Made by a program: the position numbers and the translations under genes. DNA of 64,000 nucleotides. Source: Bacteroidales bacterium. GTDB taxonomy: Bacteria; Bacteroidota; Bacteroidia; Bacteroidales; GCA-2748055. This document shows, piece after piece, positions 31,501 through 61,552 of the stretch (its first letter is position 1; each line of letters opens with the position of its first letter). A model generated the notes under the pieces. That model was not told the origin of the DNA and ran no database searches. It worked only from the letters and a program-made list of their open reading frames with translations. The stretch is taken from contig JBBDUV010000080.1 of NCBI GenBank assembly GCA_040903745.1, forward strand, positions 5,560-69,559, written 5' to 3'.

Positions 31501-33139
31501 TGGTTTCATCTGCATGAACAACCCGAACAAAGGAAACGGTAATGTTATCGGTATTCTTACCGGCTTCCAGAACAAAATCAAAATTTTGGTCTAAACTGTT
31601 TGCTATTATTTTCGATATAAAAAATGTAGCCGTTTTCAGGGAGTTATCGCCAAGCAAAGTTAGTGGTTTACTAATTTGTTCCTGCCCGTTGTTATAAACC
31701 AGGTTTAACTCTCCCGGATGATTATCGATGTAAGAAATTTTAATGGCAATCGAATCCTTTAATCCAGCCCACCTGTCATCAATATCAAACCCAATTTTTT
31801 TGCCCTGCCTGGCCACATAATCGTAATATTTCCCGGACTGTACCATCCACATTTGAATGGCATGGTCGATTCTCACAGCTGGTTCAGTTAAGTAACCCGG
31901 TGCATCGCGCTGATACAACCATCGTTCGAAATTTTTTACCGGACTCCCTCCATTTTCTTTGATGTAACTTTCTCTTAAAAAACACCAGGCATCGGGTGCA
32001 TCTTCAATTGTCCGGCCCATTTCCAAACTTACCCATGAAAGCATTTCCGGTAAAAGCGCAAACTCATTATTCAGTAAATAATTAACACGCATTTGCAGGA
32101 GCCTCAGATTTGCAGTAAAGTAGCGATATGGGAACGATTCCAAAGCACCAAAACGGGAGATGGATCCACCGTCAGCCCATTTTTCCTCATATTCTTCATT
32201 TTCCTCTCCCTGAAAAACATTTTTGGCAATCACCGGACTTGTTTCATCCACATACAAAAAATTATTGTTGTCCAGCTTTTGACCAATATGTTCATCCGGA
32301 ATGTGGTACAAATACATTTCCACGAATCCGCGTCGAATACCAAATCCTTTGCTAAATCCATAGTTGGATAAGCCACCCATGTACACCTTATATTCAACTC
32401 CTTTACAAGCTTCTGCCCAGGCGTCAATGCGTTCAATCACATGTTGAACGGTATCGTTTGCCTCCGGATTGCCTTCACCATACGGACCTATGCCTTCGTC
32501 TCCGTTTGAAGGAGAGGCATACCCCAAAAACAGACCTTTTACTTCTTCCATGTGTGTAATACCACTTTCACCCAGTGCCTTAATAAATTTGAGGTATCTT
32601 TTGTGAAATTCAGGATGGCTCACTTCGTAATTTGTTTTTTTGGGATTTTCTTTTTTTTCTTCCCGAATCGGAATATTGTATTGTTTTATCCAGTCGGGTG
32701 CAAAATCAATTGCAGAAAAATGAATACGAACAATGGAACCATAGCCTTTTTGACTTGCCTTTTTTATGTTATCAATTAAAGGTTGAAAGTTAATGTTTCC
32801 TTCCGTGGGTTCTAATTCCCGCCATTTTACCCAATGTGAAATAACCGGATTAGCAGGAAAATTAACTTCTGGCAACTGGTTAATTTTATTTGATTCCAAA
32901 CTAAAGTTACGGATAATGCAAAGTTTTGAGACTGGGGAGGGTTCTACAAAACCTGGCAAAGACCAGTCCCAACCATTTATTACTGTGTCTTTTGATATCC
33001 AGGCTGCCTTTTTGATTTCTGATACAGGAGTTTTTTGATATTCACCCCAGTAAGGATAATTTCCAACTCCGATTTCCTGACCAGATACTATAATAAAAAT
33101 CAGACCAGTAAACAGATATAGCAATAGATAGTGTTTCAC
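28559..33139 (-). CDS. 1526-aa fusion protein: module A (about nt 33139-31505) + module B (about nt 31393-29300) + Ig-like and lectin/CBM-like C-terminal domains (about nt 29299-28562)
   Basis: Signal peptide. The A part carries HWVKWRELEPTEGNINF and GYASPSNGDEGIGPYGEG. The B part carries EQAYALRTTTNPDLSYWVFGGDNNGAMYGALQVAE, RGIKFNIPLD, WDMSFWQDYFDEMARYRFNVLSLWNPHPFTSM and GVTAGENL. The tail is an Ig-like domain plus a beta-sandwich of about 140 aa. Confidence 0.7.
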   Translation of the reverse strand: MKHYLLLYLFTGLIFIIVSGQEIGVGNYPYWGEYQKTPVSEIKKAAWISKDTVINGWDWSLPGFVEPSPVSKLCIIRNFSLESNKINQLPEVNFPANPVISHWVKWRELEPTEGNINFQPLIDNIKKASQKGYGSIVRIHFSAIDFAPDWIKQYNIPIREEKKENPKKTNYEVSHPEFHKRYLKFIKALGESGITHMEEVKGLFLGYASPSNGDEGIGPYGEGNPEANDTVQHVIERIDAWAEACKGVEYKVYMGGLSNYGFSKGFGIRRGFVEMYLYHIPDEHIGQKLDNNNFLYVDETSPVIAKNVFQGEENEEYEEKWADGGSISRFGALESFPYRYFTANLRLLQMRVNYLLNNEFALLPEMLSWVSLEMGRTIEDAPDAWCFLRESYIKENGGSPVKNFERWLYQRDAPGYLTEPAVRIDHAIQMWMVQSGKYYDYVARQGKKIGFDIDDRWAGLKDSIAIKISYIDNHPGELNLVYNNGQEQISKPLTLLGDNSLKTATFFISKIIANSLDQNFDFVLEAGKNTDNITVSFVRVVHADETTGQLGAVRKVIPENAKGEFYPFYRGLDASGTQTFPKTVNIYYNKSIPQIDFAAKDIKAALEQRNFIVEIKNITSYHADFKGKKVIIALSNDKAITELLKDEGGCGFNDLEEQAYALRTTTNPDLSYWVFGGDNNGAMYGALQVAEKINASGFQGNYNESNAPFVKKRGIKFNIPLDKIAPTYEYSNGGTSHQNAIEHVWDMSFWQDYFDEMARYRFNVLSLWNPHPFTSMLNMEDEYPGIAIQDVQGYDGFSKIMTIDEKVKFWQEFMAYGKSRGFEIHFCTWNIFLWNAAGKYGLTDDYDADQTATKAYLKKCMVKFLETYPDLDGFGVTAGENLKYDNNADKTDWTWAAYGEGFKEHALANPGRELIFFHRQHQGDVTDIIEKFSPLYRLDNVTLDVSYKYAKAHVHSTASPDHWSNQFLEQIEEKGVKTWLELRNDDFYFLHWGDHQFVRDFVNAMPEDKLLAGTFFGSDGWVFTRVFTSKNPYFKNNNALEVQKHWYLNKLWGRLQYDPNTPVSALKADIKHKYPEVPEDVLFEAWTSSSRAMQIANEQVGGSGAPAQSNISRYLDFQWWPEFYTRYNGFITLEKTQYAGPMPGSNLCSIYETAENNCGGKVSAFVAADSIESKAKRALWLLESIHGEDTELLLLKDELKAMSNLSLYNAYKNRAAIYLKQGKNSKSLEAIGTAYCYWEKYTTIMDSLYYPVDTQRNWDFADSDWHDMDDEALKDYTSFGRNRKPNCSCQYPWIDFISPFDNSTHLNSTNLKVELVVESGNRSVEKVELFRNGALIGSDSDFPYSFILKKPTPGEYTLEAVVYDNLGNTDASSINVNVFNAQSYNSVPWIENFQLERRTTNDNGVTSWSSERVNGRFYVVDGKLTLNDNGTEGVMKTGKIDISGGVVDISMEVESSGDLEEDDYARFYKIVDGGREELIGEIKGPVTNTNILTGEAKGKTLQLVIRSDVNASTRYYHFDNLRVYFK

Positions 33140-43337: not shown

Positions 43338-45533
43338 TTAATCAACCGAGGGAATTCCTGTGCCCCCAAGATCGGTATATTCCTTTAGCACCAATTGGTC
43401 GTGTACATGCCAATCCGGAAGATCTTCGGTTCTCGCCATGTCCATTCCTGTGTACATATCGTCCATCAGGTTGGAATAATTCATCCACCATCCATAGGCT
43501 TCTCCAAGTGAAATCTTTGCTTTCTCTTTTTCGTTGGCCATCAGGTAAGTAGCTCCCCGAATTTTATATGCATAATAATTGGCTAAGTATGACATTGCCT
43601 TGATGTTATTAATTGTTATACCCAGCCTGGTGTTTGTATCAGCATTTATACTTTTAGCAAATGATAGCGCTGCTTTGGCACTGGCCTCTATTTCATCTGC
43701 CACATCATAAGCGCTTCTTTTTCCATCCAGATTGCCCGATGCGGTTTCGGCAATGCTTGCAAGCGCCGAACCCTGATTGGGATTTGCATTTCCGAAATCT
43801 TCAACGGTTAAAAACCCACTATTTGATTGGCATGCCTCGGGCCACCACTGGTTGTCGCGTCCTAAAGTTCCTGTGATCATTTCGCCTATTAATGGAAATC
43901 CTTCAGAAGCCTTTTTCCAGGCTGTAAATAATTCTTCTGATGATACTTCAGGGTATTTAACAGCCATAATATTTTTGAACACATCGTCTCTGGTATTCGG
44001 ATTATAAGAAAGCCGCCCCCAAAGCATGTACATGTACCATTGCCGTTGCACTTCAAGAATTCCTTGCGTTACGCTGTTCTTGCTAAAAAAAGTTCGTGTG
44101 GGCGTATAACCGTCGGCACCCATATAGAAGCCTGCAAACCATTTTCCTTTATTTATCATGCCGTTAATATAAGCGCGGGCAAAATCCGGATCTCCCCAGT
44201 TATGATAGTAGAAATCGTCATTGCGGAGATTGAGCCATGATTTTAAATTATGCTCCCGAAGCGGAGTGATGTGCCTGTCATTCATTCTTTCGGGCAAAGG
44301 AATCGAATACATGTGGGCCAAACTGTATTTATATGACAGCTCAAAAGTGATATTAGGAAGCTTCATCAATTCAGCAAAATTTTCCTTCATATCGGTGAAG
44401 TCGGCCAGGTGCCAACGATGAATGAATGTCAGTTTCCTCTCCGGATGAAGCTTTGCATAATCGGCCATACCCATGCCATAGGTTTTAGCCAGAAACAAGG
44501 CATCATTTATTTGATGCTGCTCCGGGCGTAAATCGCGGGGGCCAACATGCCATGACATGTGCTCGCCCTGGGTAATGCCAAAACCATCGAGATCGGGGTA
44601 TGTTTCTAAAAGTGTTGACATACATTTGCGCATATAATCAATTGTAGCCTGATTGGTTGCAGCTTTTGCCTGTTCATCAGTAATCCCGTATTTACCGGTA
44701 GCGCCATCGGTAAATATATTCCAGTTGAAAAGATAAAATTCGAAGCCGCGCGATTTTGCATAAGCCATCACGTCTCTCCAAAATTCTATTTTTTCGTCAA
44801 TTGACATGGACTTTTTGTATCCATCCAAACCGGTTACATCCTGAATTGCGACATCCGGATATTCGGGCATTTTAATCATCGATGTAAATGGATGATTGCT
44901 CCAAATGGTAAGAACATTGTACCTGTATCTGGCCATTGTATCAAACCAGCTTGTCCAGAATGTCATATCCCATACATTGGGAATTGCTTTGATTTTAGAG
45001 GTCACATTTCCTGCTCCGTATGTTCCACTTTCTTTGTCAAACGGCAGATTGAGTTTGATTCCCCGTTTTAAGATGGCTGGAGATTCCTGTTCGTTATAAG
45101 TACCAGTAAATCCATTAATTTTGAAATTTTCAGCAAGCTGTAATCCTCCATACATGGCGCCTGTATTGTCGCCGCCCAGTGCCCAGTAAGAACTTTGTCC
45201 CTGCGTTGTGGTTCTCAAAGCATAAGCCTGCTTTCCTAAACCTGTAGTAGCAGTTACACCATGGGAAGTAAGCATCTCTTTTACCCTGGTGTCAGTTGCC
45301 AGGGCAATAATCACTTTTTTGTTGGCGTAGGCAGCGTTTAGCTGGTCAATACTCCGCATTTCAACGGTGAGACTTTTAGACTCAAGTGCTGCTTTAACAT
45401 CTCCGGCAGCAAACTCGATCTGTTCAACAGTTGAATCGTAGAAAACGCCTATTGTTTCAGCAAAAACCATTGTGTGCATGGCAAGAGCCACGATACACAT
45501 TGTGCAAAATCGCAATATTATTTTTCTAAACAT
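43338..45533 (-). CDS. Uncharacterised module-B protein, putative glycoside hydrolase
   Basis: 731 aa with a signal peptide. Contains KQAYALRTTTQGQSSYWALGGDNTGAMYGGLQLAE, RGIKLNLPFD, WDMTFWTSWFDTMARYRYNVLTIWSNHPFTSM and GITQGEHM. Confidence 0.6.
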   Translation of the reverse strand: MFRKIILRFCTMCIVALAMHTMVFAETIGVFYDSTVEQIEFAAGDVKAALESKSLTVEMRSIDQLNAAYANKKVIIALATDTRVKEMLTSHGVTATTGLGKQAYALRTTTQGQSSYWALGGDNTGAMYGGLQLAENFKINGFTGTYNEQESPAILKRGIKLNLPFDKESGTYGAGNVTSKIKAIPNVWDMTFWTSWFDTMARYRYNVLTIWSNHPFTSMIKMPEYPDVAIQDVTGLDGYKKSMSIDEKIEFWRDVMAYAKSRGFEFYLFNWNIFTDGATGKYGITDEQAKAATNQATIDYMRKCMSTLLETYPDLDGFGITQGEHMSWHVGPRDLRPEQHQINDALFLAKTYGMGMADYAKLHPERKLTFIHRWHLADFTDMKENFAELMKLPNITFELSYKYSLAHMYSIPLPERMNDRHITPLREHNLKSWLNLRNDDFYYHNWGDPDFARAYINGMINKGKWFAGFYMGADGYTPTRTFFSKNSVTQGILEVQRQWYMYMLWGRLSYNPNTRDDVFKNIMAVKYPEVSSEELFTAWKKASEGFPLIGEMITGTLGRDNQWWPEACQSNSGFLTVEDFGNANPNQGSALASIAETASGNLDGKRSAYDVADEIEASAKAALSFAKSINADTNTRLGITINNIKAMSYLANYYAYKIRGATYLMANEKEKAKISLGEAYGWWMNYSNLMDDMYTGMDMARTEDLPDWHVHDQLVLKEYTDLGGTGIPSVD

Positions 45534-50553: not shown

Positions 50554-52680
50554 TTACCGGTTCTTTACCCATTCCACTTCAGCATCAACTTTTTCCTGGA
50601 AATCTTTCCAATGAAAATAATTGTCGTCATCGTCTAATATTGATAAATAGCTGCGTTGGTATTGTTTATCAGTTACCGTTACAAGGTCTTGCCAATGATG
50701 CTGCGCCTCCTTGATATATTTAACTGCATCTGCCTTTTTATTTTGATTAAGGGCCACAGCAGTGCGGATTTTTTTTGCAAAATAGTGGCCAAGATGTGCC
50801 CATGCCTCAACATCTTCAATCTCGCATTCTAATATCTCATCAGTAGTATTTATGCCATTAACAATACTTATGGCCTGTTTATTATCATTTTCAAGAGCAG
50901 TGGCTAACTGCAAGGGTGTTATTTTTGATCCAAAATCACCGCTTCCGTCGCCGTATTCTTTTATACTGACAAAATTTGGCTCTATGGGATTGGCATCAAG
51001 CATTTCATCTAAGGTAATAAAATCCCGCTCATTACCGATAAATCCCTCTGTATAAAAGGAGTGGTCCCAGGTAAAATTAAAGAACTGAGCGATGCGCTGA
51101 GTGGTGCGCGTTGCCAGTTTATAAGCGCTCACCATTTGGCTGCCGGGATTTCCCGAATACCTTTGGTTAAACGCATTGGTAAATACAGCGTCGCTCGTTG
51201 AAGGGTCGTATAATAGCCTTCCCCATTGGTTGTAATAGAGCCATTTCCGTTCAAATTCATAGTTCCAGTTTATGCGATCAGGTTTGGTAAAAATATCTTT
51301 TGCAGGAATGTAACATTCGGAACCAATGAAATAACCGCCCACATAATCCTGGCCATTGACTGCTATATGTTCCCTGATAAAATCCGGCTCTCCCCAGCGT
51401 AACCTGAAAAAATCCTCATTTCGAATCATCCAGCCCATCTTATGTTGGCTCGGTGCAGGGTCGGACCAGTATTCTTCTCCGGTGCGGCCTCCATGTGCCT
51501 TAACCAGTGTTGTGGAAGAGTGACCATGTGACCAGTTAAATTTTAGTTCAACAATTATCGGGTTTTCAGGTGTGGAGATCCCGGAATTGTCTATGGCCTC
51601 ACGATGTGGCCGGTGATCTCCGTGAAGTGATGCACGATAGATGAACCGTGCTTCCCGGTCAGCCGCCCTTATACCTTCAAAGAAAGTTCTTTCAAACCAA
51701 CCTGCCATCTGGTAGCCATCCCATTCCTGCATAGCTTCCCCCGGGGTAACGCCGAGACCGGTCAAATCGGGGTATTCATGTAGCACCTGGGTAACCGTTT
51801 CCCTGGTATATTTTTCAATTTGTGGCGAAGTATAGCCATCCGCCCAAAGTCCGGTATTGCCTTCCCCGTAATTCTCCCTGAAACTTTTGGAGACAATAAT
51901 ATTCCAGTTAATGATGTACGTTTCAATTCCCCTATCTTTGGCCATTCGAAACAGGGCCGTCCAGAACGTTTTCCATTCTGCCAGTTCAGCATCTGAAAAA
52001 GGTGTCGCCTTCGGGAAGTTTTTGGCTTTAATCATGTATGGAAAGGGATGAAGACTCCATAAGGTAAGTGCATTGAGCCTGCTTTCAGCCATCATGTCAA
52101 GGAAAGATGCCCACATGTCCAGGTCCTTACTCAGTTCACTATTTGCCTGAAGTCCCTCGTTTTCTCTGTATGAAACCCAGGGCAGATTATATTTAACCGC
52201 ACGGAAACTGAACCGGGGGGTTACCAGCTTTTCTTCAATTTTGGACAACTCCTGCTGCATCTCAATTTGCTCGGCTATCTCCAGCAGGCCATACATACCT
52301 CCCGTTGCGTCGATGGCAGTAACGATAAACGAATCGCCAGATTTACCAATTCGAAACCCCTCTTTTTTAATCTCCGCATCCTCATGGTGATTTACAATTT
52401 TTACCTGAATCTGCTCTTTACCGGTTGCCTCAGAGTTATCAACCACCTGGTGAGATATGCCCAAATTACGGAGAACTAATTCGATCTTTGAAGCCCCAAA
52501 AACCTCCATGGGCGAATTTTTGTCGATAGCAACCGAGAATATAAAATCTTCCTGAAAGCTATTTTCGCTTGCCTTTGCTATTTGTATACAGCCAATGATC
52601 AGGCAACTCGCTAGTAATACTGTTCTAATTTTCTCAATAATCATAATTATGTCCTTTAATTTCAGCGGTTTACTTTCCAT
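50554..52680 (-). CDS. Uncharacterised module-B protein (more divergent copy), putative glycoside hydrolase
   Basis: 708 aa. The likely true start is Met13 (nt 52644; MIIEKIRTVLLASCLIIGCIQIAKA). Contains EGFRIGKSGDSFIVTAIDATGGMYGLLEIAE, FRAVKYNLPW, DMWASFLDMMAESRLNALTLWSLHPFPYM and GVTPGEAM. Confidence 0.55.
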   Translation of the reverse strand: MESKPLKLKDIIMIIEKIRTVLLASCLIIGCIQIAKASENSFQEDFIFSVAIDKNSPMEVFGASKIELVLRNLGISHQVVDNSEATGKEQIQVKIVNHHEDAEIKKEGFRIGKSGDSFIVTAIDATGGMYGLLEIAEQIEMQQELSKIEEKLVTPRFSFRAVKYNLPWVSYRENEGLQANSELSKDLDMWASFLDMMAESRLNALTLWSLHPFPYMIKAKNFPKATPFSDAELAEWKTFWTALFRMAKDRGIETYIINWNIIVSKSFRENYGEGNTGLWADGYTSPQIEKYTRETVTQVLHEYPDLTGLGVTPGEAMQEWDGYQMAGWFERTFFEGIRAADREARFIYRASLHGDHRPHREAIDNSGISTPENPIIVELKFNWSHGHSSTTLVKAHGGRTGEEYWSDPAPSQHKMGWMIRNEDFFRLRWGEPDFIREHIAVNGQDYVGGYFIGSECYIPAKDIFTKPDRINWNYEFERKWLYYNQWGRLLYDPSTSDAVFTNAFNQRYSGNPGSQMVSAYKLATRTTQRIAQFFNFTWDHSFYTEGFIGNERDFITLDEMLDANPIEPNFVSIKEYGDGSGDFGSKITPLQLATALENDNKQAISIVNGINTTDEILECEIEDVEAWAHLGHYFAKKIRTAVALNQNKKADAVKYIKEAQHHWQDLVTVTDKQYQRSYLSILDDDDNYFHWKDFQEKVDAEVEWVKNR

Positions 52681-52704
52681 GTATCTGTAATATCCCTATC
52701 TATT

Positions 52705-54222
52705 TCAATTAATCTGAATTGACTCCTGTTTTATTATAATATTCTCAATATCAATTACTATTCTTCTGTAATCAAATAGTGAAGCTATTGCATTGTCGTC
52801 TTTTACTTCCAAAATCAGGTGTATTTGTTTTCCTCCTGCGCCGGAAGGAATTGTTATGCTGGTTTTCGACTGATTTGGATCAGAAATATTTATTTGCCCG
52901 GAATACGTTCCCGCTTCTTCATAAATCCACCATCTAAAAATCAGTTCATCATTATCAGGATCGGTAGAAGCTGATGCATCGAAAGAAATAACTTCTCCGG
53001 CCAAAGCGCTCATCCTGATAATTAAATTGGATTTGTCTCCGTCTATTGCTGCAACCGGATGGTGGTTTGCCTCTTCAAACGGTTTTGTGGCCCAGTCCAT
53101 GCGGCAGATTTGATTGTTATACATTGCTTCGCGCCAGCGCCAAACCGGTACATAATTATTGTTATACACTTTCCCATCCTGCGGATCAACCCAATGGTCG
53201 CTTACTTCGCGGTAAGTGTAAAATGGAGTTTGTTTTTCTTCATCGACCTTTATGTCGACATGGCGCGACCAAAAGTCAGAAACTTTTTCGGCTGTAAATC
53301 GGCCTCCCCAACCACCCCAGGAAGGATGGTTGATATCGAAAAGCCCTTTATTTAAAAGTCCCATCCAGGGAATGGTTCCTCCGCCTTCCATAAAGCCAAA
53401 GTCACCCCAGCCGAAACCGTGTCTCGACGGATATATTTTGCCAAGTTCGCCATGGCCGGTCATCACATGTTCCGTCAGCCATTCATTCTGGCCGGCAGTA
53501 CTGTATTCAAATGGCTGCCAATAGTGGGGGCCAAGATTGGTCGTTAAATCACCGTCGGTTCCACCGGGCCCTCCGTAGGCATACGTTTGATAATTGCTTC
53601 GTATCCAGTGTATTTTAGGAAAATTACTGCATATCCATGCGCCGGCATTGTCCTGTGCTCCGTTTTCAAATACCCTCAGTTTAGCCACAAAAGCATCCAC
53701 TTCGGCTTTTGAATGTTCTTTTTCATAATCATACAAGGCCTGGGCAAGGGTATTAGATCCTGCATTGACAGCAATCCATACGGGCCGTGGGTCATCTCTG
53801 GAAACAACCTCAAGGATCAATTCCGAACCCGGGCTCGATTTGCCTTCCCCTACATCGGCAATTCCGTATCCTTTCTGCCCGGAACGTACTACTTTTCTCA
53901 AATCATCCGGTTCAGGCCAGCCAGCCACGTGTTTTTTCAGGTTTGGCAGGTCCTTTTCATAAGCATCGATAATTTCGTGGAACAGTTCCGGATGTGTCAC
54001 CCTGCGGTATTCATCCCTTGCTTCAGGCCTCAGATATTTACCGGTAACAGCTATCAATCCCTCAATATCCAGCTCGTTTGAGCAGGCGAACATGTGGGTC
54101 ATCTGTTGCATTTCGTCCGGTTCGTTTCCCATATCGGCCAGGACGATCAGGCGGTGATTATCGTTGGCCTGAACTACCAATACATTGAATAATACCAATA
54201 GTGATACTAATACTTTCATCAT
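52705..54222 (-). CDS. DUF1593 (Sde0182-type nucleoside-hydrolase-like domain) protein with a C-terminal Ig-like domain
   Basis: 505 aa with a signal peptide. Contains HRLIVLADMGNEPDEMQQMTHMFACSNELDIEGLIAVTG. The C-terminus FDASASTDPDNDELIFRWWIY is PKD/Ig-like. Confidence 0.6.
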   Translation of the reverse strand: MMKVLVSLLVLFNVLVVQANDNHRLIVLADMGNEPDEMQQMTHMFACSNELDIEGLIAVTGKYLRPEARDEYRRVTHPELFHEIIDAYEKDLPNLKKHVAGWPEPDDLRKVVRSGQKGYGIADVGEGKSSPGSELILEVVSRDDPRPVWIAVNAGSNTLAQALYDYEKEHSKAEVDAFVAKLRVFENGAQDNAGAWICSNFPKIHWIRSNYQTYAYGGPGGTDGDLTTNLGPHYWQPFEYSTAGQNEWLTEHVMTGHGELGKIYPSRHGFGWGDFGFMEGGGTIPWMGLLNKGLFDINHPSWGGWGGRFTAEKVSDFWSRHVDIKVDEEKQTPFYTYREVSDHWVDPQDGKVYNNNYVPVWRWREAMYNNQICRMDWATKPFEEANHHPVAAIDGDKSNLIIRMSALAGEVISFDASASTDPDNDELIFRWWIYEEAGTYSGQINISDPNQSKTSITIPSGAGGKQIHLILEVKDDNAIASLFDYRRIVIDIENIIIKQESIQIN

Positions 54223-54440
54223 ATATATAAATCCCTTAGGTAAATAACTTCCTCATCGGATGAGGAGATAATTTCAAGACCAACATTATCAACATACCAT
54301 TTTGCCGTTGCTTCCTTATCGGGAACATTAATGCGTAAATGTTCAAACCTAATTGCTTTGAGCTCCTCCTTTAAGTTTTGAGAAAAGTTGTTTATGGGAA
54401 GAAAACAAACTAATAGAAAAATTTGAAGTAGTGTTTTCAT
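54219..54440 (-). pseudogene. Truncated VOC/glyoxalase-family fragment
   Basis: 73 aa: a signal peptide plus one half-module (RFEHLRINVPDKEATAKWYVDNVGLEI). A full VOC domain is roughly twice as long. The stop overlaps the next ATG (ATGA). Confidence 0.4.
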
Positions 54441-54455
54441 AGCTTGTCATTTTTA

Positions 54456-54830
54456 CTAAATTTCTACAATTGCATCAATTTCAACAAGGGCATTTTTTGC
54501 CATTTTTGATACCTCAACACAGGCCCTTGCAGGCTGCTGATTGGTAAAATAGGTGGCGTATATTTGATTCATAACCGCAAAATCATTCATATCCTGAAGA
54601 TAAACGGTACATTTCACGACTTTCTCCATATTCGTTCCGGCAGCCTCTATGATTGCTTTCAGATTTTCAAGCACCTGTGATGTCTGTTCTTCAATGGTTT
54701 GCGCAACCTCTCCCGTTTGTGGATGAATGGGTAACTGCCCACTGGTAAAAAGGAATCCGCCTGTAATAACCCCCTGATTGTATGGTCCTATTGCTGAAGG
54801 TGACTTTTCTGTTTTTATTATTTTTTTCAT
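54456..54830 (-). CDS. ridA: RidA family reactive-intermediate (enamine/imine) deaminase
   Basis: 124 aa. Contains PSAIGPYNQGV...FTSGQLP...ARACVEV...VEIDAIV, which is canonical YjgF/RidA. Confidence 0.9.
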   Translation of the reverse strand: MKKIIKTEKSPSAIGPYNQGVITGGFLFTSGQLPIHPQTGEVAQTIEEQTSQVLENLKAIIEAAGTNMEKVVKCTVYLQDMNDFAVMNQIYATYFTNQQPARACVEVSKMAKNALVEIDAIVEI

Positions 54831-54832
54831 AA

Positions 54833-55798
54833 TTATTTATTTACTACGTTAATAGGATTACCATTAATAAAAGCCTGGAGATTCTCAATGGCTGTATTCA
54901 TTAATCTTGCACGGGATTCTTTGGGCGCCCAGGCAATATGTGGAGTTATAATACAATTCTTTGCTTTTAAAAGTGGGTTATCAGAAGAAATTGGCTCACT
55001 TGAAACAACGTCAACTGCTGCACCTGCAACTTTGCCGCTCTCCAATGCCTGACGAAGATCTTCCTCAACTATCAATGGTCCACGCGAAGTATTGATGATC
55101 ATCACACCATTTTTCATTTTAGCTATGTTATTTTTATCGATAATCCCTTTGGTGCTATCGAAAAGCGGGCAATGCAGACTGATGATATCCGATTTCGCCA
55201 ACAACTCATCAAGTGGGACATACTTACAGGCAGCATTTTCTAATTCAGGATTCTCATAATTATCGTATGCCAGTATATTCAAGCCGAAGGCCTGTGCAAT
55301 TTTTGCAGTAGCCTGACCAATACGTCCAAAGCCAATAATCCCCAAGGTTTTATCAGCCAACTCAACGAGTGGGTAATTCCAAAAACAAAAATCGGAACCT
55401 CTTGTCCAGTCTCCGTTCTTAACTGCCCTGCTGTGTTCACCTATATGGTGACACAATTCAAGCAACATCGCTATTGTATATTGCGCTACTGCAGTCGTTC
55501 CATAGGTAGGGACATTTGTAACAATTATTCCTTGTTCCCTTGCCGCTTCAGTGTCAACTACATTAAAACCAGTAGCAAGAACACCAATGTATTTAACCGA
55601 TGGCGTATTAATTAATACACTTTTAGGAACTGGTGTTTTATTCGTAAATATAATCTCAGCGTCACCAATGGCTTCAATCACTTTTTCCGGAACAAAATCA
55701 ACTCTGTCATGAACAGTCAAATTGCCAAATTTTTCGATTCCCTCCCAGCTTAAATCACCCGGATTTAGGGTATATCCATCTAATACTACTATCTTCAT
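54833..55798 (-). CDS. D-isomer-specific 2-hydroxyacid dehydrogenase (glycerate dehydrogenase / hydroxypyruvate reductase-like)
   Basis: 321 aa. Contains the NAD fold GIIGFGRIGQATA, then SLHCPL...INTSRG...D and ITPHIAW. Confidence 0.85.
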   Translation of the reverse strand: MKIVVLDGYTLNPGDLSWEGIEKFGNLTVHDRVDFVPEKVIEAIGDAEIIFTNKTPVPKSVLINTPSVKYIGVLATGFNVVDTEAAREQGIIVTNVPTYGTTAVAQYTIAMLLELCHHIGEHSRAVKNGDWTRGSDFCFWNYPLVELADKTLGIIGFGRIGQATAKIAQAFGLNILAYDNYENPELENAACKYVPLDELLAKSDIISLHCPLFDSTKGIIDKNNIAKMKNGVMIINTSRGPLIVEEDLRQALESGKVAGAAVDVVSSEPISSDNPLLKAKNCIITPHIAWAPKESRARLMNTAIENLQAFINGNPINVVNK

Positions 55799-55827
55799 TT
55801 TATATTCCTTTTAATATTTATTTTTAC

Positions 55828-56748
55828 TTATTCATTCTCTAAAATAGCCCATGCTAAGTTCAGTACCCGCTTTGCATTTGCAACAACAATATCGGCATCT
55901 TCATCTCCAACCGGCTTAACCTCAAAACTTAAAAAACGTCTGTTGTCAGGGTTTAAGTAACCTATTTCCATCAGTACTTTAAGATATTCAACCAGTTCAT
56001 CTACATCATTTTCACCACCAGGATATCCGAAACGGGGATGTGCATCACCAAAAGCAGGATCCTGCTTATCTTTCATCATACAATTACCCATGTGCGCGTG
56101 GATGATGTAATCTTTGACGGGGATAAGTGATTGACGGGCCGTCTCGTGTATTATAGGCAAGTGGCTAAGATCAACCATGAGTCCAAAATTGTCAAACTCA
56201 GCACAAATTTCCTCTGCATATCTTTTTGCCAGATCAACGGGGCCTACAAGGGAGCATTTATCAATATCAAAATCAAACACTTCGTGCGCAATTTTCATAT
56301 CCCCTTTGGATTTGGCATAGGCACAAATTTCTCGTGTAGATTTGACCAGCGACTGATAGGCTTCTTCTTTCTTGTCTTCGCTATACTTCCCACTCAAAAA
56401 CCCAAAACCAACGGCCCCAATTTCATGGGCTTCATCTATGCCTTCCTTCAGGTTAGCTACAGCTATTTGTCTTTTCGTTTCATCAAGGTCATTAATGTTT
56501 TGTCCTGTAGTTAATAATCGTGGTTGTCCACCATAAGCGATGCTTAAGTGCGAACTGTCGAGCATTTTTTTAACTCTTTTACGGACTTCTGCATCTTTAA
56601 TCCAGGTTATCTCAATGGCATCGAAATAGTCGTCAACTGCAATTTTTCTTATGGTTTCCTCAATGGGTCCTTCTCCTTTAATTGTCGAAGGATAGGCCAT
56701 AAAGTGAATTAGCCCAATTTTTGCATACTTGTTAATTGAATCTTTCAT
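55828..56748 (-). CDS. Xylose-isomerase-like TIM-barrel sugar(-phosphate) isomerase/epimerase
   Basis: 306 aa with the general AP_endonuc_2 pattern (...HEVFDF...MVDLSHL...HAHMGN). Hydroxypyruvate isomerase belongs to this fold. Confidence 0.6.
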   Translation of the reverse strand: MKDSINKYAKIGLIHFMAYPSTIKGEGPIEETIRKIAVDDYFDAIEITWIKDAEVRKRVKKMLDSSHLSIAYGGQPRLLTTGQNINDLDETKRQIAVANLKEGIDEAHEIGAVGFGFLSGKYSEDKKEEAYQSLVKSTREICAYAKSKGDMKIAHEVFDFDIDKCSLVGPVDLAKRYAEEICAEFDNFGLMVDLSHLPIIHETARQSLIPVKDYIIHAHMGNCMMKDKQDPAFGDAHPRFGYPGGENDVDELVEYLKVLMEIGYLNPDNRRFLSFEVKPVGDEDADIVVANAKRVLNLAWAILENE

Positions 56749-56765
56749 AATTGATAATCATTTTA

Positions 56766-57917
56766 TTATTTAATTTTTACCGCGTTCCAAAGTCGCACCA
56801 CATTTTCAGCCGAATTTTCCAGTAATTCTTTGGTATTGGCTAAAGCCTCTTCCAATAACATGGGCCTGTCAATAATTGAATAAATACAATCAAAACCGCT
56901 ATTGTATAAAGTAGAATAACCTGGGCCAAGGCTTCCGGCCAAAGCAACAACAGGAATGTTCATTTTCCTGGCAATTTGAGCAACACCATAGGGTGTTTTT
57001 CCAAAAGCAGTTTGAGCATCCATTTTTCCTTCACCTGTAATCACTAAGTCAGCACCACAAATTATCTCATCAAGTTTTAATAGCCGGGTAACAATATCGA
57101 TGCCTCTCTCAAGCCTGGCATTTAAGAAAAGCATCACAGCGTATCCCAGACCGCCTGCTGCACCTGTCCCGGGTAAGTCTTTTATATCAAGCCCCAAACT
57201 ATTTTTTACGATATGGGCAAAATGAACAAGCCCTTTATCCAGGGTTTCTACATCACTATCGCTGGCACCCTTCTGCCTCCCATACACATTTGAGGCACCG
57301 TTTTGTCCGCACAAGGGATTGTCAACATCACAAGCCGCAATAAATTTCACGTTGCTTACCCTGTCATCAATTCCTGATACATCAATGGTTCTGATCCTGG
57401 ATAATTCATGGCCGCCGACATGAACGCTATTCCCGTTTTCGTCAAGAAAACAAACACCAAGTGCTTGCGCCATGCCTATTCCACCATCGTTTGTTGCACT
57501 GCCCCCAAGGCCAAGTATTATGCTCGTACAACCTTTATCCATAGCGTCTTTAATCAACTCACCGGTTCCATAGGAAGTGGTCTTCAATGGATCTCTTTCT
57601 TCAGGCTTTAACAAGGGAAGGCCGGAAGCAGCAGCCATTTCAATTACCGCAGTTTTACCATCTCCCAATATCCCGTAAAATGAATCTATTGTTCTGAATA
57701 AAGGGTCATGAACAGTCGTTTTAATGATATCTCCCCCTGTAGCATCAATTAATGATTGCACAATACCTTCGCCACCATCAGCCATCGGGACAACTATGGT
57801 GTCGATATCATGACCGACCTTTACTATTCCATCCCGAATAGCATTTCCTACCTCAAGTGCAGATAAACTGCCTTTAAAAGAATCAGGAGCGATAACTATT
57901 TTCATTCTCTTCTGCAT
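56766..57917 (-). CDS. Glycerate kinase (GlxK/GarK family)
   Basis: Contains KIVIAPDSFKGSLSALEVGNAI...VPMADGGEG...ITGEG.D.QT..GK. The likely start is MKIVIAP at nt 57905. It overlaps the end of the upstream permease. Confidence 0.9.
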   Translation of the reverse strand: MQKRMKIVIAPDSFKGSLSALEVGNAIRDGIVKVGHDIDTIVVPMADGGEGIVQSLIDATGGDIIKTTVHDPLFRTIDSFYGILGDGKTAVIEMAAASGLPLLKPEERDPLKTTSYGTGELIKDAMDKGCTSIILGLGGSATNDGGIGMAQALGVCFLDENGNSVHVGGHELSRIRTIDVSGIDDRVSNVKFIAACDVDNPLCGQNGASNVYGRQKGASDSDVETLDKGLVHFAHIVKNSLGLDIKDLPGTGAAGGLGYAVMLFLNARLERGIDIVTRLLKLDEIICGADLVITGEGKMDAQTAFGKTPYGVAQIARKMNIPVVALAGSLGPGYSTLYNSGFDCIYSIIDRPMLLEEALANTKELLENSAENVVRLWNAVKIK

Positions 57918-58860
57918 TTTGTCTGGCTAATTCCTTTTTCCTGTTTTGTTTTGCGACGAAAGTTGTCAGCACAGGAACCAGAATAGCAGTTGTTATAGTT
58001 GATGCAGCTACCTGAGGTGCAGCTATGGCAGCAATACCTGCTAAAGAAGGATCTACCATAGCAACAGCAGCTGGTGTTGCAACGGCGTTTCCGGCCGTAC
58101 TGGAAGAAGCTGCACCTGCAACTCCGGTTCCTCCGGAAGCTTTATCTGCCAAGATATTAAAAAAACCGCCAAAAACAACAGTAAATACACCAAGCAAAAT
58201 TCCCGGGAGTCCTGCTTTTAGTAGCATATCCATGTTAAGACCACAGCCTAAAGCGAAGGCAAAAAACGGGATGAGCATAGGACCACCCTTCATTAAAAAA
58301 TCCCGCATCTCTTTGTCAAGGTTACCTACCAACATTCCCAGAGCTATAGGTAGTACAACCCCCAGGAGTGACAAAAATGGGATAGATGCTATCCCGGCCG
58401 TACCTAACGCAATCATAGTTAAAAAGGGCCCATCGTTAATCGATATGATAGCAATAGCGCCAATTTCTGATTTCTTTCCAAATTCACCAGCAAGTGCTGC
58501 ATACAATCCCCCATTGGTATTGGTCATTGCCGAAATAACGGCCAGCGAAGACAAACCCCATAATCCTTCTACACCAAAAAATTTAGCCACTGCTAATCCA
58601 ATCCCAACACCAACGCCAAACTTCACCACAGTAAGAACAAACCCGGTTTTAATTGCCCTGGGGGCAGCTTTTACATCCATGCCTGCACCCATACAAAATA
58701 AAAACACCCCAATAATAGTGGTTGCACCCGTTGCAATAGCAGTTGTAAACCCTCCAATATTTAATACTCCGGGGGCCAGGGTATTGATTATCGCCCCAAG
58801 AACCAGTGGAATTACCATCATCCCACCGGGAATTTTTTCTATAGCTGCCTTTATTTTCAT
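57883..58860 (-). CDS. KdgT-family (2-keto-3-deoxygluconate-type) acid-sugar permease
   Basis: 325 aa and polytopic. MKIKAAIEKIPGGMMVIPLVLGAIINT is a typical KdgT N-terminus. Confidence 0.8.
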   Translation of the reverse strand: MKIKAAIEKIPGGMMVIPLVLGAIINTLAPGVLNIGGFTTAIATGATTIIGVFLFCMGAGMDVKAAPRAIKTGFVLTVVKFGVGVGIGLAVAKFFGVEGLWGLSSLAVISAMTNTNGGLYAALAGEFGKKSEIGAIAIISINDGPFLTMIALGTAGIASIPFLSLLGVVLPIALGMLVGNLDKEMRDFLMKGGPMLIPFFAFALGCGLNMDMLLKAGLPGILLGVFTVVFGGFFNILADKASGGTGVAGAASSSTAGNAVATPAAVAMVDPSLAGIAAIAAPQVAASTITTAILVPVLTTFVAKQNRKKELARQNAEENENSYRS

Positions 58861-58934
58861 ATTATTTAATTCGATTGCTGCTCCTTTTTTATCTTCAAAG
58901 ATGATAATTATTTCGATTCCGTCAAATTAATATT

Positions 58935-61181
58935 CTATTGGATTAAAATTAATTTTTTTGTTGAGACAATGCCATTCTCAGTCTCCAAACGGCATAAATA
59001 CAAACCGTTAGCAAGCGGATTCCCTTTTTTATCCCTTGCATCCCACTCGACACTAAAAAGCCCCTCATTATGATATTCATTCACTAAAACAGCTATTTTC
59101 TGCCCGGTAAAATTGTAAACTGCAAGGGTTGCGTGCCCTGTGCTGCTCAACAGGTAGGGTATATTGGTTTTTACACTAAAAGGGTTCGGGAAATTCTGCC
59201 CCAATGTACTTTGGCCTGGAACGGGGTTCAACACATCGCCTACACTGGTTATTGGTGAAAACAGAGCTGTTACCTCTATGTTAGCAACCACATTAAAGGA
59301 TACCGGATTGTCCGTTCCGCTCAGGTCGCCGCTCCAGCTACTGAACGCATAGCCTTCATCGGGTATGGCTGTAAGTGTAACAACTGTTCCCTTACTATAA
59401 GAGCCTCCCGGCGGATTCAGCTCCACCTGGCCATATTCTGATTCAATGTTCAAGCTGTAGATAGGGACTATTTCAAAAGATGCTGAAACATGTTTGTCTC
59501 CATCCATTGTAAGAGTAATCGGGTTTACGGTACCTGATACATCTCCTCCCCATGACTCGAACGCATAACCCAAATCGCCAACTGCCGTAACTGTAACCAC
59601 TGTTCCCTGCAAATACGAACCGCCTGCAGGATCTAAAATAAGTGATCCATTGGGCGTTTCGGATGTAATTGTATATTTTGGTAGTTCAACTGTTGGGTCA
59701 TAGTTTAAACTTTTATCGTTGAAGGGATCATCAAAATTAAAATCCTGAGGTAATTCCTCAACCGTATTGCTGCTTGTATTTATGATGGCAAGTGGATGGC
59801 GACCACCATTGATATAGTTGGCGGTCGCAAACCTCAGGGCTGGCAGATTCCCGCCGGGATCGAGTACGGCAAGTGCAACAATATAGCTCCCCCCGGGAAC
59901 GTTAACACTGAATTCCTCTTCGACGGTATTCTCTTCAGGAGGATTTGCCCAGCCGGTTACTCCTGTGCTGTTCCAATTTTCATGTGGCACATTGGTCCTC
60001 CAGCCACCAACAGGTGTCCATTCCGGTTCTGTCCATCCGCTACCGGGCAACCAGTCCCTGATATCAGCATTTTTCATAGTCGATGTCCAAACCGGGGTTA
60101 AAGTTGTTGGATCCAACAACGAAACTTCAACAGGCCAATCATAATAAAAGGGAGCGGAACCTTCGTTGGTCACATCAAACGAAATGCTTAATGAATCACT
60201 CACCCCTACCCTGACTTCATTAAGCACGTACCGGTATCCAAATGCTTTTTGGATCTCTTCAGCACCTGCCACTGCTGCCGCATTGTTTCTGTCGTAACCA
60301 GCTATCCAACGGAGCTGGGTGCAATGCAGCCAACGAATAGAGTTAATAACAAAATTCCGGTGTTTTTCAATAGCTACACTGCTCGTTGGTGAGGGTCCCG
60401 GTTGTATATCCCCATTTCCCCAGTTGTAAGCTACCTCACCACCTATGTAATTATGTAAATAACGATCCTTTGTACTGTTTACATTATGAATACTCTTTCC
60501 GTGGGGCCACATCTGATCATAATGCGCCCAGGAATCCCAATACTCACCAAAAGGCTGTTGTGTAAACTGGTCCCAAAAATGCCTTACCGATACCTTTTTA
60601 TTTTTAAAAGCTTCGGCAAATGCATCTCCGACCAACTTTTGCATCTTAGCCGTTGGCGAGGGACCATGGTGTTCACCCCATTTTCCGAATATCCCCAATT
60701 CTACAAAAGCTACCCGGGGATCATTGTCCCAGGCGATACCAAGCCTTTCTATCAGGCGCAATACCCTTTCCTGAAATTGTTCACTTGTATAGTCATCCGC
60801 TTGCATATCCGATGGCCAGTATTTTTGGTTGTCAGCACTCCAATGTAAATAAACCCGTGGGATCGCTTTTTTATTGGCAGAAGCCAAACCACCCCACTTT
60901 GCATTTGAAACTGCCAATATTTTATCAAGTCCGTCAGACTCCTTATTTTCTAACTCATTCCATTTGATATAGGTATGGTTTGCTGAGGCCCAGGGATGCT
61001 TGTTGTCTCCATGAGTAAATCCCATCATAGGGTTACGAAGCGCACGCTCATAGGGGGTTGGTGTTATGCTCAATGGATTGTCGCTTTGTGAATAAACCGC
61101 TGACATGGATGTGATAAAAACCATGGCAATGGCTAAAATCTTAAAAAAGACCGCTGAAATTTTATTGAAAAAAGTGTTCAT
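58935..61181 (-). CDS. Module-C protein: DUF4874/DUF4832-like TIM barrel + 2 InlB-B-type (Listeria-Bacteroides) repeats + T9SS C-terminal sorting domain
   Basis: I choose the start at Met25 (MNTFFNKISAVFFKILAIAMVFITSMSAVYSQ). Contains ALRNPMMGF, KWNELE, IPRVYLHWS and DPRVAFVELGIFGKWGEHHG. Two repeats follow (G.YAF.SW(G/S)GD(V/L)SG), then a C-terminal NFPNPF...LYLCRLE... sorting domain. Confidence 0.6.
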   Translation of the reverse strand: MNTFFNKISAVFFKILAIAMVFITSMSAVYSQSDNPLSITPTPYERALRNPMMGFTHGDNKHPWASANHTYIKWNELENKESDGLDKILAVSNAKWGGLASANKKAIPRVYLHWSADNQKYWPSDMQADDYTSEQFQERVLRLIERLGIAWDNDPRVAFVELGIFGKWGEHHGPSPTAKMQKLVGDAFAEAFKNKKVSVRHFWDQFTQQPFGEYWDSWAHYDQMWPHGKSIHNVNSTKDRYLHNYIGGEVAYNWGNGDIQPGPSPTSSVAIEKHRNFVINSIRWLHCTQLRWIAGYDRNNAAAVAGAEEIQKAFGYRYVLNEVRVGVSDSLSISFDVTNEGSAPFYYDWPVEVSLLDPTTLTPVWTSTMKNADIRDWLPGSGWTEPEWTPVGGWRTNVPHENWNSTGVTGWANPPEENTVEEEFSVNVPGGSYIVALAVLDPGGNLPALRFATANYINGGRHPLAIINTSSNTVEELPQDFNFDDPFNDKSLNYDPTVELPKYTITSETPNGSLILDPAGGSYLQGTVVTVTAVGDLGYAFESWGGDVSGTVNPITLTMDGDKHVSASFEIVPIYSLNIESEYGQVELNPPGGSYSKGTVVTLTAIPDEGYAFSSWSGDLSGTDNPVSFNVVANIEVTALFSPITSVGDVLNPVPGQSTLGQNFPNPFSVKTNIPYLLSSTGHATLAVYNFTGQKIAVLVNEYHNEGLFSVEWDARDKKGNPLANGLYLCRLETENGIVSTKKLILIQ

Positions 61182-61552
61182 ATTTAAATTATTTATCCAT
61201 AATAATAACAATAAACCGATCAATATCGTCCTCGCGCCTGGTCTGTTAAACATTATTTAATTTCTATATACTATTATCTTCAGAAACCCATTTTCTTTAA
61301 TCCCAGCTCTTGTAACACTAGATATAGCTATGATTAAACAACATATATTAAAAAGTGCCATTCTCATTTGCAACTCTTATAAATGTGATGAAACTAATTC
61401 GATTCCTTTATTGTGTCCAAGATTCCTGGAATATTGCCTGTCTGCCGGATTATTCCAATGCTCGTGTACACCTAAGCTTTCAAGGAGAGTTCCGTCATTT
61501 TCCGGATCGTATTTTGTTCCTGAAGTTTCAGGGTTTTCCCTCCCCGGACTTC

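Follow-up and report, generated by a model that had tools for sequence, protein, structure and literature searches.

We analysed a window of 64,000 nucleotides from contig JBBDUV010000080.1 of a Bacteroidales bacterium (assembly GCA_040903745.1), in which five co-directional minus-strand open reading frames (ORFs) fill positions 54456–58860 (ORF list of the window). They encode, in order of transcription, a KdgT-family permease, a class I glycerate kinase, a xylose-isomerase-like TIM barrel, a D-2-hydroxyacid dehydrogenase and RidA (Table 1). A first-pass annotation of the same DNA had proposed these identities and positions, and the ORF list, Pfam and NCBIfam bear them out. It had also described the genes as tightly packed, with the permease overlapping the kinase. 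The overlap spans 35 nt, or 23 nt if the kinase begins at its fifth codon, and the remaining gaps are 17, 29 and 2 nt. Because the NCBIfam match begins at the fifth codon, the true start of the kinase is likely at 57905. The arrangement is not due to chance, since the identical gene order recurs in other phyla. A scan of 52500–61500 found 18 promoter-like sites (22.9 ± 4.4 in shuffles; the scan does not cover Bacteroidota promoters) and 13 terminator-like sites (8.6 ± 3.4 in shuffles). On its two sides the cassette is bordered, as noted before, by a Sde182_NH-like gene and a gene for a DUF4832 protein with a type IX secretion system (T9SS) tail. All five genes lie within a single minus-strand array (8265–63187) of sulfatases and GH27-like, GH43, GH31 and distant GH138-like genes. 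A SusD-like protein and a TonB-plug protein, forming a SusC/SusD pair, are encoded on the same strand ~14–19 kb past the window end (L111:14066–19259; L111 is the window's own contig beyond that end, with separate numbering). With such a pair in the same gene array, the locus is predicted to be a Bacteroidota polysaccharide utilisation locus.

Table 1. The cassette, its flanks and the GH138-like gene of the window (positions in the 64,000-nt window).
Feature	Position	Strand	Length	Assignment and remarks
KdgT-family permease	57883–58860	minus	325 aa	presumed inner-membrane importer of an acid substrate
Class I glycerate kinase	56766–57917	minus	383 aa	PF02595, TIGR00045
Xylose-isomerase-like TIM barrel	55828–56748	minus	306 aa	PF01261
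D-2-hydroxyacid dehydrogenase, GHRC-like	54833–55798	minus	321 aa	2-Hacid_dh_C and 2-Hacid_dh
RidA-type enamine/imine deaminase	54456–54830	minus	124 aa	Ribonuc_L-PSP, TIGR00004
VOC/glyoxalase-fold gene remnant	54219–54440	minus	73 codons	first 73 codons of a secreted two-domain protein; follows RidA
Sde182_NH-like (formerly DUF1593)	52705–54222	minus		PF07632 and PF21027; flank on the 3' side of the cassette
DUF4832/T9SS-tail protein	58935–61253			Pfam; other flank of the cassette
Distant GH138-like (alpha-galacturonidase-like) protein	43338–45533	minus		NF049878, 79 bits (cut-off 1300), N-terminal 300 residues only

The permease, which is single-copy in the genome, matches PF03812 with 381 bits (E 6e-114), and residues 3–304 align with profile positions 1–304 of 305. 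It is thus predicted to be a full-length member of the KdgT family (PF03812 / TC 2.A.10). It scores below the 2-keto-3-deoxygluconate (KDG) transporter equivalog TIGR00793 (279.8 bits; cut-off 453.8), so KDG is not implied as its substrate. The kinase, the sole glycerate kinase of the genome, matches PF02595 (522 bits, E 1e-156) and TIGR00045 (512.4 bits; cut-off 168.45) and falls below the 3-kinase and 2-kinase equivalogs (425 and 398 bits; cut-offs 625 and 686); these scores place it, as a prediction, in the class I glycerate kinase subfamily. The usual KDG partners of KdgT, KdgK and 2-keto-3-deoxy-6-phosphogluconate (KDPG) aldolase, had been described as absent. This holds for the window, where no ORF of at least 150 aa matched PfkB or PF01081, but not for the genome, which has one UxaC gene and two PF01081 aldolase genes, all on other contigs. 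A canonical hexuronate role for KdgT was considered and rejected as the leading interpretation: UxaC and Eda are encoded on other contigs, and the permease gene overlaps that of a glycerate kinase. Opposite the KdgT gene lies a 301-aa plus-strand ORF (58025–58930) that is most likely a shadow ORF; we also judge L063:5308–6399 to be a shadow ORF, as it occupies the slot where tblastn puts KdgT in that related locus.

The dehydrogenase has both Pfam domains of its family (2-Hacid_dh_C, E 3e-62; 2-Hacid_dh, E 1e-24). Its best match in the PDB is 5tx7 (E 2.7e-100), followed by the next solved chain at E 1e-52; the solved 2-ketogluconate reductase 9m0t matches at E 3e-42. Section 19 of PMC6303947 describes 5tx7 as a representative of the GHRC subfamily of 2-hydroxyacid dehydrogenases (2HADHs), names a Methylobacterium hydroxypyruvate reductase as its only characterised member, and depicts a tight pocket lined by Lys52, which is part of an Asn-Lys motif, the absolutely conserved Trp135, and Trp288. 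We aligned 19 cassette orthologues (the window protein and 18 others) to the residues of 5tx7. N53 and K54 of the Asn-Lys motif and W290, the equivalent of Trp288, are invariant. The dehydrogenase thus appears to be GHRC-like, of the subfamily of HprA: it is closest to the GHRC representative and retains the Asn-Lys motif and Trp288, but not Trp135. It is presumed to act as a hydroxypyruvate (or glyoxylate) reductase.

The TIM barrel matches PF01261 (AP_endonuc_2) with 57 bits (cut-off 31, E 2.9e-15), and its best NCBIfam match, IolO, reaches 41 bits of a cut-off of 300. A PDB sequence search found no solved relative better than E 5e-4, and an ESM Atlas search returned generic 'xylose isomerase-like' clusters only. 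The gene is single-copy in the genome; the family has at least 3812 homologues at E ≤1e-10, labelled 'sugar phosphate isomerase/epimerase' where they are named at all. An AlphaFold2 model (pLDDT 93) comes closest in fold to ketose 3-epimerases (Z 28.3 to 26, rmsd 2.2–2.8 over 254–275 residues), within a wide set of PF01261-superfamily members matched at Z 20–28, such as E. coli YgbM (1k77, Z 24.9) and PA2260 (1yx1, Z 21, 9% identity). The model therefore has the predicted fold of the xylose-isomerase-like superfamily, a fold typical of metal-dependent enediolate enzymes. Across 28 TIM-barrel sequences D193, H219 and E276 are invariant and E156 is kept in at least 90%; the four residues lie opposite E, D, H and E of E. 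coli Hyi only in a BLASTP alignment that is not significant. This pattern suggests a metal-dependent enediolate enzyme with a putative Glu-Asp-His-Glu site, presumably an isomerase, epimerase or lyase that feeds the dehydrogenase. Either an aldehydo-acid or a 2-keto-3-hydroxy acid would be chemically reasonable as its substrate.

To follow the cassette across genomes we used the TIM barrel, its least generic gene, as a probe and recovered 102 loci, 39 from species genomes and 63 from metagenomes. They were divided by TIM-barrel identity to the window into a close (at least 80%, 46 loci), a middle (60–79%, 38 loci) and a distant tier (below 60%, 18 loci), and cassette partners were counted by tblastn only where the flank was long enough (for the dehydrogenase, at least 1.1 kb downstream). 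A dehydrogenase orthologue lies downstream of the TIM barrel in 26/30 close-tier, 20/26 middle-tier and 1/15 distant-tier loci, and the two genes occur together in 46 of the 56 assessable loci of the two closer tiers. The TIM barrel followed by the dehydrogenase is the conserved core. The other partners are largely confined to the close tier: KdgT, with orthologues of 64–87% identity upstream of the TIM barrel, in 23/31 (middle tier 1/27), the class I glycerate kinase in 18/30 (6/25), RidA in 17/23 (3/26) and a secreted VOC-fold protein in 10/20 (0/23). The five-gene form is the version of the module found in Bacteroidota and Verrucomicrobiota.

Around the core, partners are exchanged. Verrucomicrobial cassettes occur without any kinase, and in two loci (L006 and L008) a glycerate 2-kinase of the unrelated DUF4147/MOFRL type stands in for the class I enzyme. 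A split transketolase is encoded in 10/34 middle-tier loci; it accompanies the TIM barrel where reductase and kinase are missing (L007, L013, L014 and L020) and stands alongside both in others (L016, L018 and L031). Genes resembling tartronate-semialdehyde reductase are present in 5/34 middle-tier loci, and a CdaR-type sugar-diacid regulator and a GlcG-like protein also occur in TIM-barrel clusters. Elsewhere KdgT is replaced by at least five types of carboxylate transporter (LctP, Tct, CitMHS, TRAP and ABC). The distant tier has its own set of partners: Tct transporters, a Zn-dehydrogenase, a class II aldolase, UPF0261, a DUF1537 kinase, a PdxA homologue and a Gcl-like thiamine pyrophosphate (TPP) enzyme.

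None of 200 genomes sampled from the same order, and none of 400 from the phylum, had a TIM-barrel orthologue at E ≤1e-60. Maximum-likelihood phylogeny groups the window protein with eight Bacteroidota and four Verrucomicrobiota sequences on short branches (support 97/99) and places a second Bacteroidota group (Chitinophagaceae) apart. A Planctomycetota protein, from a Novipirellula strain, is 84% identical to the window TIM barrel. The cassette thus appears to be a rare, accessory operon acquired by horizontal transfer; because its TIM barrel is missing from all 600 sampled genomes, it does not look like housekeeping glycerate metabolism.

The neighbourhood of the cassette is also repeated. 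Carbohydrate-active enzymes (CAZymes) or sulfatases adjoin it in 12/15 well-flanked close-tier loci, 3/15 middle-tier loci and 0/3 distant-tier loci. Three proteins of the window array have orthologues beside the cassette in L002, L004 and L062: the sulfatase 16242–17828 (76% identity), the GH27-like protein 17831–19210 (71–73%) and 28559–33139 (69%). A GH138-like gene is found within 7 of the 15 well-flanked close-tier loci, commonly just upstream of the permease or right after the VOC gene. Thirteen such ORFs in 12 loci have the GH138-like gene of Table 1 as their best match in the window, at up to 60% identity; the nearer 50554–52680 is not the best match. GH138-like is used here as a loose label, because the alpha-galacturonidase model matched these proteins weakly (41–147 bits; cut-off 1300) and in their N-terminal part only. 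The separate Chitinophagaceae lineage repeats the glycan association with LctP in place of KdgT: in L023 and L083 the order is SusC, SusD, GHL6, LctP, TIM barrel, dehydrogenase, tartronate-semialdehyde-reductase-like protein and glycerate kinase, followed in L023 by a GH138-like gene that L083 does not have. Since the core pair is found without CAZymes in anaerobic Bacillota and others, we regard it as a general small-acid unit that was recruited to glycan loci, not as a glycan-specific invention. Repeated synteny is what supports the proposal that the cassette may serve the glycan locus. A look-up of sequencing runs containing the sequence listed eight of DNA type, from sediment or cold springs, and none of RNA. 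The tie to the CAZyme array suggested earlier gains support in the close tier and does not extend to the core pair as a whole.

Taken together, these data lead us to give about an even chance to the following reading: the cassette may be an accessory, horizontally acquired catabolic operon that takes an imported small acid through hydroxypyruvate and D-glycerate to phosphoglycerate and that was recruited to glycan loci. The permease would import a small carboxylic acid, which the TIM barrel would turn into hydroxypyruvate, either by aldose-ketose isomerisation, if the acid is an aldehydo-acid (tartronate semialdehyde, for example), or by isomerisation or cleavage, if it is a 2-keto-3-hydroxy acid. 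The GHRC-like dehydrogenase would reduce hydroxypyruvate to D-glycerate, the kinase would yield 2- or 3-phosphoglycerate, and RidA probably disposes of an imine or enamine that forms as a reactive side product. Loci rich in sulfatases and CAZymes would have taken up the module in Bacteroidota and Verrucomicrobiota, next to a distant GH138-like glycosidase, and for this reason it probably consumes an acidic residue or fragment freed from the target glycan. Gene identities, synteny, rarity and spread across phyla are observed; all of the reactions, the direction in which they run and the substrate are what we infer.

The lower part of this route has a comparative basis. D-glycerate is suggested as the product because the names of the two unrelated kinase families beside the pair refer to one and the same reaction. 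Hydroxypyruvate serves transketolase as an irreversible donor, and LctP-type carriers, the CdaR-type regulator, the GlcG-like protein and tartronate-semialdehyde-reductase-like genes fit a C2–C3 acid node. It is the company of a GHRC-like reductase, glycerate kinases, transketolase and C2–C3 acid genes that points to hydroxypyruvate, D-glycerate and phosphoglycerate downstream of the TIM barrel. This end of the pathway had been proposed in the first-pass annotation, and the subfamily of the dehydrogenase, its pairing with the TIM barrel and the two kinase families lend it backing.

Several observations weigh against the proposed operon. The TIM barrel gave no match to the Hyi (TIGR03234, NF007444) or OtnI (NF043033) models at E ≤1e-5, and its similarity to E. 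coli Hyi is not significant (BLASTP E 0.054, 19% identity; hhalign probability 0.3). It belongs to an unnamed, uncharacterised family and not to Hyi or OtnI; of the earlier view of a hydroxypyruvate-isomerase type, the shared fold stands and the family relationship does not. A Hyi-like conversion of tartronate semialdehyde to hydroxypyruvate would fit the partner genes, but in this 97% complete genome nothing scores above the Gcl cut-off and a GarL-type aldolase is absent (the HpcH-family genes present are CitE-like, and there is one DHDPS-family gene). Of 28 further genomes with the TIM barrel, Gcl reaches its cut-off in none and GarL in one. With its usual sources lacking, tartronate semialdehyde loses ground as the intermediate that had been suggested, and the substrate of the TIM barrel more probably comes directly from the imported acid. 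In the dehydrogenase one of the three GHRC hallmark residues differs, as Phe137 occupies the Trp135 position in the window protein and Phe is also the consensus residue there among the cassette orthologues (the residue-numbering offset of one at this position is our own deduction). Three near-identical close-tier loci (L001, L049 and L051) have KdgT and the TIM barrel with no dehydrogenase within 7–8 kb, so the TIM barrel works there without its usual partner. These three and other near-duplicates (L047/L086 and L069/L070) inflate the independence of our counts. Twelve of the 15 well-flanked middle-tier loci are without a CAZyme, CAZyme labels being limited to the clusters that we annotated. 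Finally, nothing in the proposed pathway needs RidA, whose role is left unexplained by every reading considered here.

Four alternatives were weighed against these data. The one that survives best, though unlikely, is a 2-keto-aldonate operon resembling kgu, in which a 2-keto sugar acid would be imported, phosphorylated and reduced to a phosphorylated aldonate, with the TIM barrel in the role of KguE. We take KguE to be a PF01261 protein, KguD a 2-hydroxyacid dehydrogenase and PA2260 to be KguE; PA2260 shares the fold of the TIM barrel, and the KdgT family of carriers takes its name from a 2-keto acid sugar. The make-up is also the same by the kgu roles given in the accessible portion of PMC11678583, namely a transporter, a kinase, a TIM-barrel 'epimerase' and a reductase. 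However, the kinase and the transporter are not of the kgu families. The kinase is a clear member of a glycerate-kinase family, is replaced by the other such family in L006 and L008, and is dispensed with in the verrucomicrobial cassettes. The dehydrogenase is far nearer to GHRC than to 2-ketogluconate reductase, and the GHRC pocket, as depicted in the available part of PMC6303947, is tight. PA2260 itself ranks well below the ketose epimerases among the structural matches of the TIM barrel.

An Otn-like C4 route for L-threonate or D-erythronate is improbable. By oxidation of the D-2-hydroxy acid the dehydrogenase would produce 2-oxo-tetronate, and by isomerisation the TIM barrel would give 3-oxo-tetronate, which would then be phosphorylated and decarboxylated to dihydroxyacetone phosphate or cleaved by transketolase. 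OtnI and Hyi carry out chemistry of the same type, YgbM has the fold of the TIM barrel, and relatives below 60% identity occur with a Zn-dehydrogenase, a class II aldolase (a weak match to 3-oxo-tetronate-4-phosphate decarboxylase) and a DUF1537 kinase or PdxA homologue. These partners are seen only in the distant tier, however, where the GHRC-like dehydrogenase is all but missing (1 of 15 assessable loci). No OtnI, OtnK or OtnC model matched in the window cassette, which is also without a decarboxylase, and the two glycerate-kinase families indicate a C3 product.

We regard a tartrate/dihydroxyfumarate route as quite improbable. Here the dehydrogenase would oxidise L- or meso-tartrate to oxaloglycolate, the TIM barrel would handle the enediol and its decarboxylation to hydroxypyruvate, and the same dehydrogenase would form D-glycerate. 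Such a scheme would be redox-neutral and would employ all three enzymes; the classical Pseudomonas route runs from tartrate through oxaloglycolate to D-glycerate, and Tct, CitMHS and TRAP carriers and a sugar-diacid regulator are found with the core pair. Tartrate is no known glycan constituent, whereas the close tier is tied to CAZyme loci, and the KdgT and LctP carriers are named for monocarboxylates.

Housekeeping glycerate metabolism that fell by chance within a CAZyme array, the alternative that the first-pass annotation had set against its own proposal, is very improbable and largely refuted by distribution: the cassette provides the only glycerate kinase of the genome and shows no excess of promoter- or terminator-like sites in or beside it, but its TIM barrel is absent from the sampled relatives, its clade mixes phyla and the same CAZyme neighbours recur in related loci.

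Returning to the proposed acid-to-glycerate operon, known systems offer partial parallels. The E. coli gcl-hyi-glxR ... glxK cluster likewise ends in D-glycerate and a class I glycerate kinase and places an AP_endonuc_2-fold enzyme, Hyi, next to a reductase; the garPLRK operon includes a dedicated acid permease. The cassette differs from these systems in that its TIM barrel is not of the Hyi family, its reductase is a GHRC-like 2-hydroxyacid dehydrogenase and not a GlxR/GarR-type beta-hydroxyacid dehydrogenase, its genome lacks Gcl and GarL, and it has a KdgT-family permease, RidA and a glycan-locus setting. HprA of the Methylobacterium extorquens serine cycle, which converts hydroxypyruvate to D-glycerate, is apparently of the same 2HADH subfamily as the cassette dehydrogenase (5tx7, Asn-Lys motif, Trp288) and would catalyse the same reaction, but the cassette enzyme has Phe at the Trp135 position and no serine-cycle genes nearby. 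Pseudomonas kguE-kguK-kguT-kguD shares the four-part design of transporter, kinase, TIM-barrel protein and keto-acid reductase, and the accessible portion of its description treats the KguE reaction as still not established (PMC11678583); the cassette departs from it in kinase and transporter families and in reductase subfamily, and its TIM barrel is far from PA2260. D-tagatose/D-psicose 3-epimerases and OtnI/YgbM, the best structural matches of the TIM barrel, would have the predicted Glu-Asp-His-Glu site in common with it, yet are only 14–22% identical, and the cassette partners are acid-metabolism genes and not sugar kinases. Our searches of the open-access literature found nothing on this gene combination.

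We therefore view the cassette as a variation on the glycerate pathway that has an uncharacterised TIM-barrel family at its core and has been drawn repeatedly into sulfated-glycan loci. Its final steps are conventional, and the biochemistry can be tested. For the target glycans of sulfatase- and CAZyme-rich loci in sediment and soil Bacteroidota and in Verrucomicrobiota, the downstream operon offers a rare handle on the acidic building block that is released. Knowing which reaction the TIM barrel catalyses would put a function on thousands of genes now labelled 'sugar phosphate isomerase/epimerase', set GHRC enzymes in a second physiological context besides the serine cycle and indicate which acid residue is cut by GH138-like enzymes; if the substrate were merely free glycerate or hydroxypyruvate, the finding would be ordinary. 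The interpretation offered in the first-pass annotation is, overall, partly supported.

A more specific reading that joins these elements is tentative, and we hold it to be doubtful as a whole. The TIM barrel might have a new activity, making hydroxypyruvate from an imported aldehydo- or 2-keto-3-hydroxy (ulosonic-type) acid that GH138-like exo-glycosidases free from sulfated glycans. Together with the GHRC-like reductase and glycerate kinase, or with transketolase, it could form a previously undescribed 'hydroxypyruvate shunt' for acid sugars, transferred among Bacteroidota, Verrucomicrobiota, Planctomycetota and anaerobic Bacillota, in which the secreted VOC-fold protein and secreted RidA paralogues might prepare the substrate in the periplasm.

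The last gene of the cassette leads into a degraded one. RidA matches Ribonuc_L-PSP (E 1.3e-42) and TIGR00004 (170.7 bits; cut-off 106.25), which predicts a detoxifying hydrolase of the Rid family, and it has the 'PAR' arginine, presumably catalytic, at R102. In the 10 close-tier loci noted above, RidA is followed by an intact VOC-fold gene of ~300 aa with a Pfam Glyoxalase match. In the window, tblastn with the VOC protein of L047 aligned residues 2–71 only, with 64% identity at 54231–54437, and found no further copy in the genome. The stop of this remnant overlaps the start of the Sde182_NH-like gene (ATGA). No orthologue of that gene adjoins the cassette in any of the 102 related loci; it is a flank, not a cassette member elsewhere, and it stands where the VOC gene would continue to its 3' end. 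PDB sequence searches with the secreted VOC protein and two neighbouring Pfam-less ORFs, one of them L063:5308–6399, returned nothing usable. An amino-acid substrate, prompted by RidA, a pyridoxal phosphate (PLP) enzyme in L064 and branched-chain-type ABC carriers, was also considered and was weakened when the PLP enzyme matched the cysteine synthase CysK above its cut-off.

A second RidA paralogue, with a signal-peptide-like N-terminal extension, is encoded on the plus strand ~7 kb past the window end (L111:7469–7951), just downstream of a short RidA fragment. Similar paralogues (L050:10418–10963 and L062:10734–11195) stand in tandem after the cytoplasmic RidA and ahead of the secreted VOC gene. 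To our knowledge, a secreted RidA would be unusual.

Some TIM-barrel relatives lie in clusters of other composition. In L001, L049 and L051, KdgT and the TIM barrel are accompanied by two hybrid sensor kinases, a LacZ-type GH2 protein and a protein with a 3-keto-disaccharide-hydrolase domain; the opposite strand carries a UxuA-like gene. In four loci of Desulfobacterota type (L033, L035, L096 and L098), relatives with 43–46% identity are part of a conserved cluster with LacI, a creatininase-like protein, UPF0261, TctCBA, a Zn-dehydrogenase and a class II aldolase. This cluster is laid out in a way similar to the Otn tetronate pathway, UPF0261 standing where the kinase would be. In L036 and L037 the relative (49–52% identity) lies behind genes for a DUF1537 kinase and a Gcl-like TPP enzyme (518 bits; cut-off 791) and ahead of one for an IclR regulator. 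L036 adds an LctP carrier and a GlcD/E-like flavoprotein, and L037 a class II fructose-bisphosphate (FBP)-type aldolase.

Beyond the end of the array far from the cassette, two adjacent short plus-strand ORFs (7228–7707 and 7692–8225) cover separate portions of the GH95 catalytic and C-terminal domains, and look like a GH95 gene split by frameshift or truncation. Beyond the window end, consecutive minus-strand ORFs contain the C-terminal (L111:8829–9770) and N-terminal (L111:9812–11017) domains of GH3, which suggests a split or frameshifted GH3 gene; beside them, a 148-aa ORF (L111:8284–8730) has only a T9SS sorting tail.

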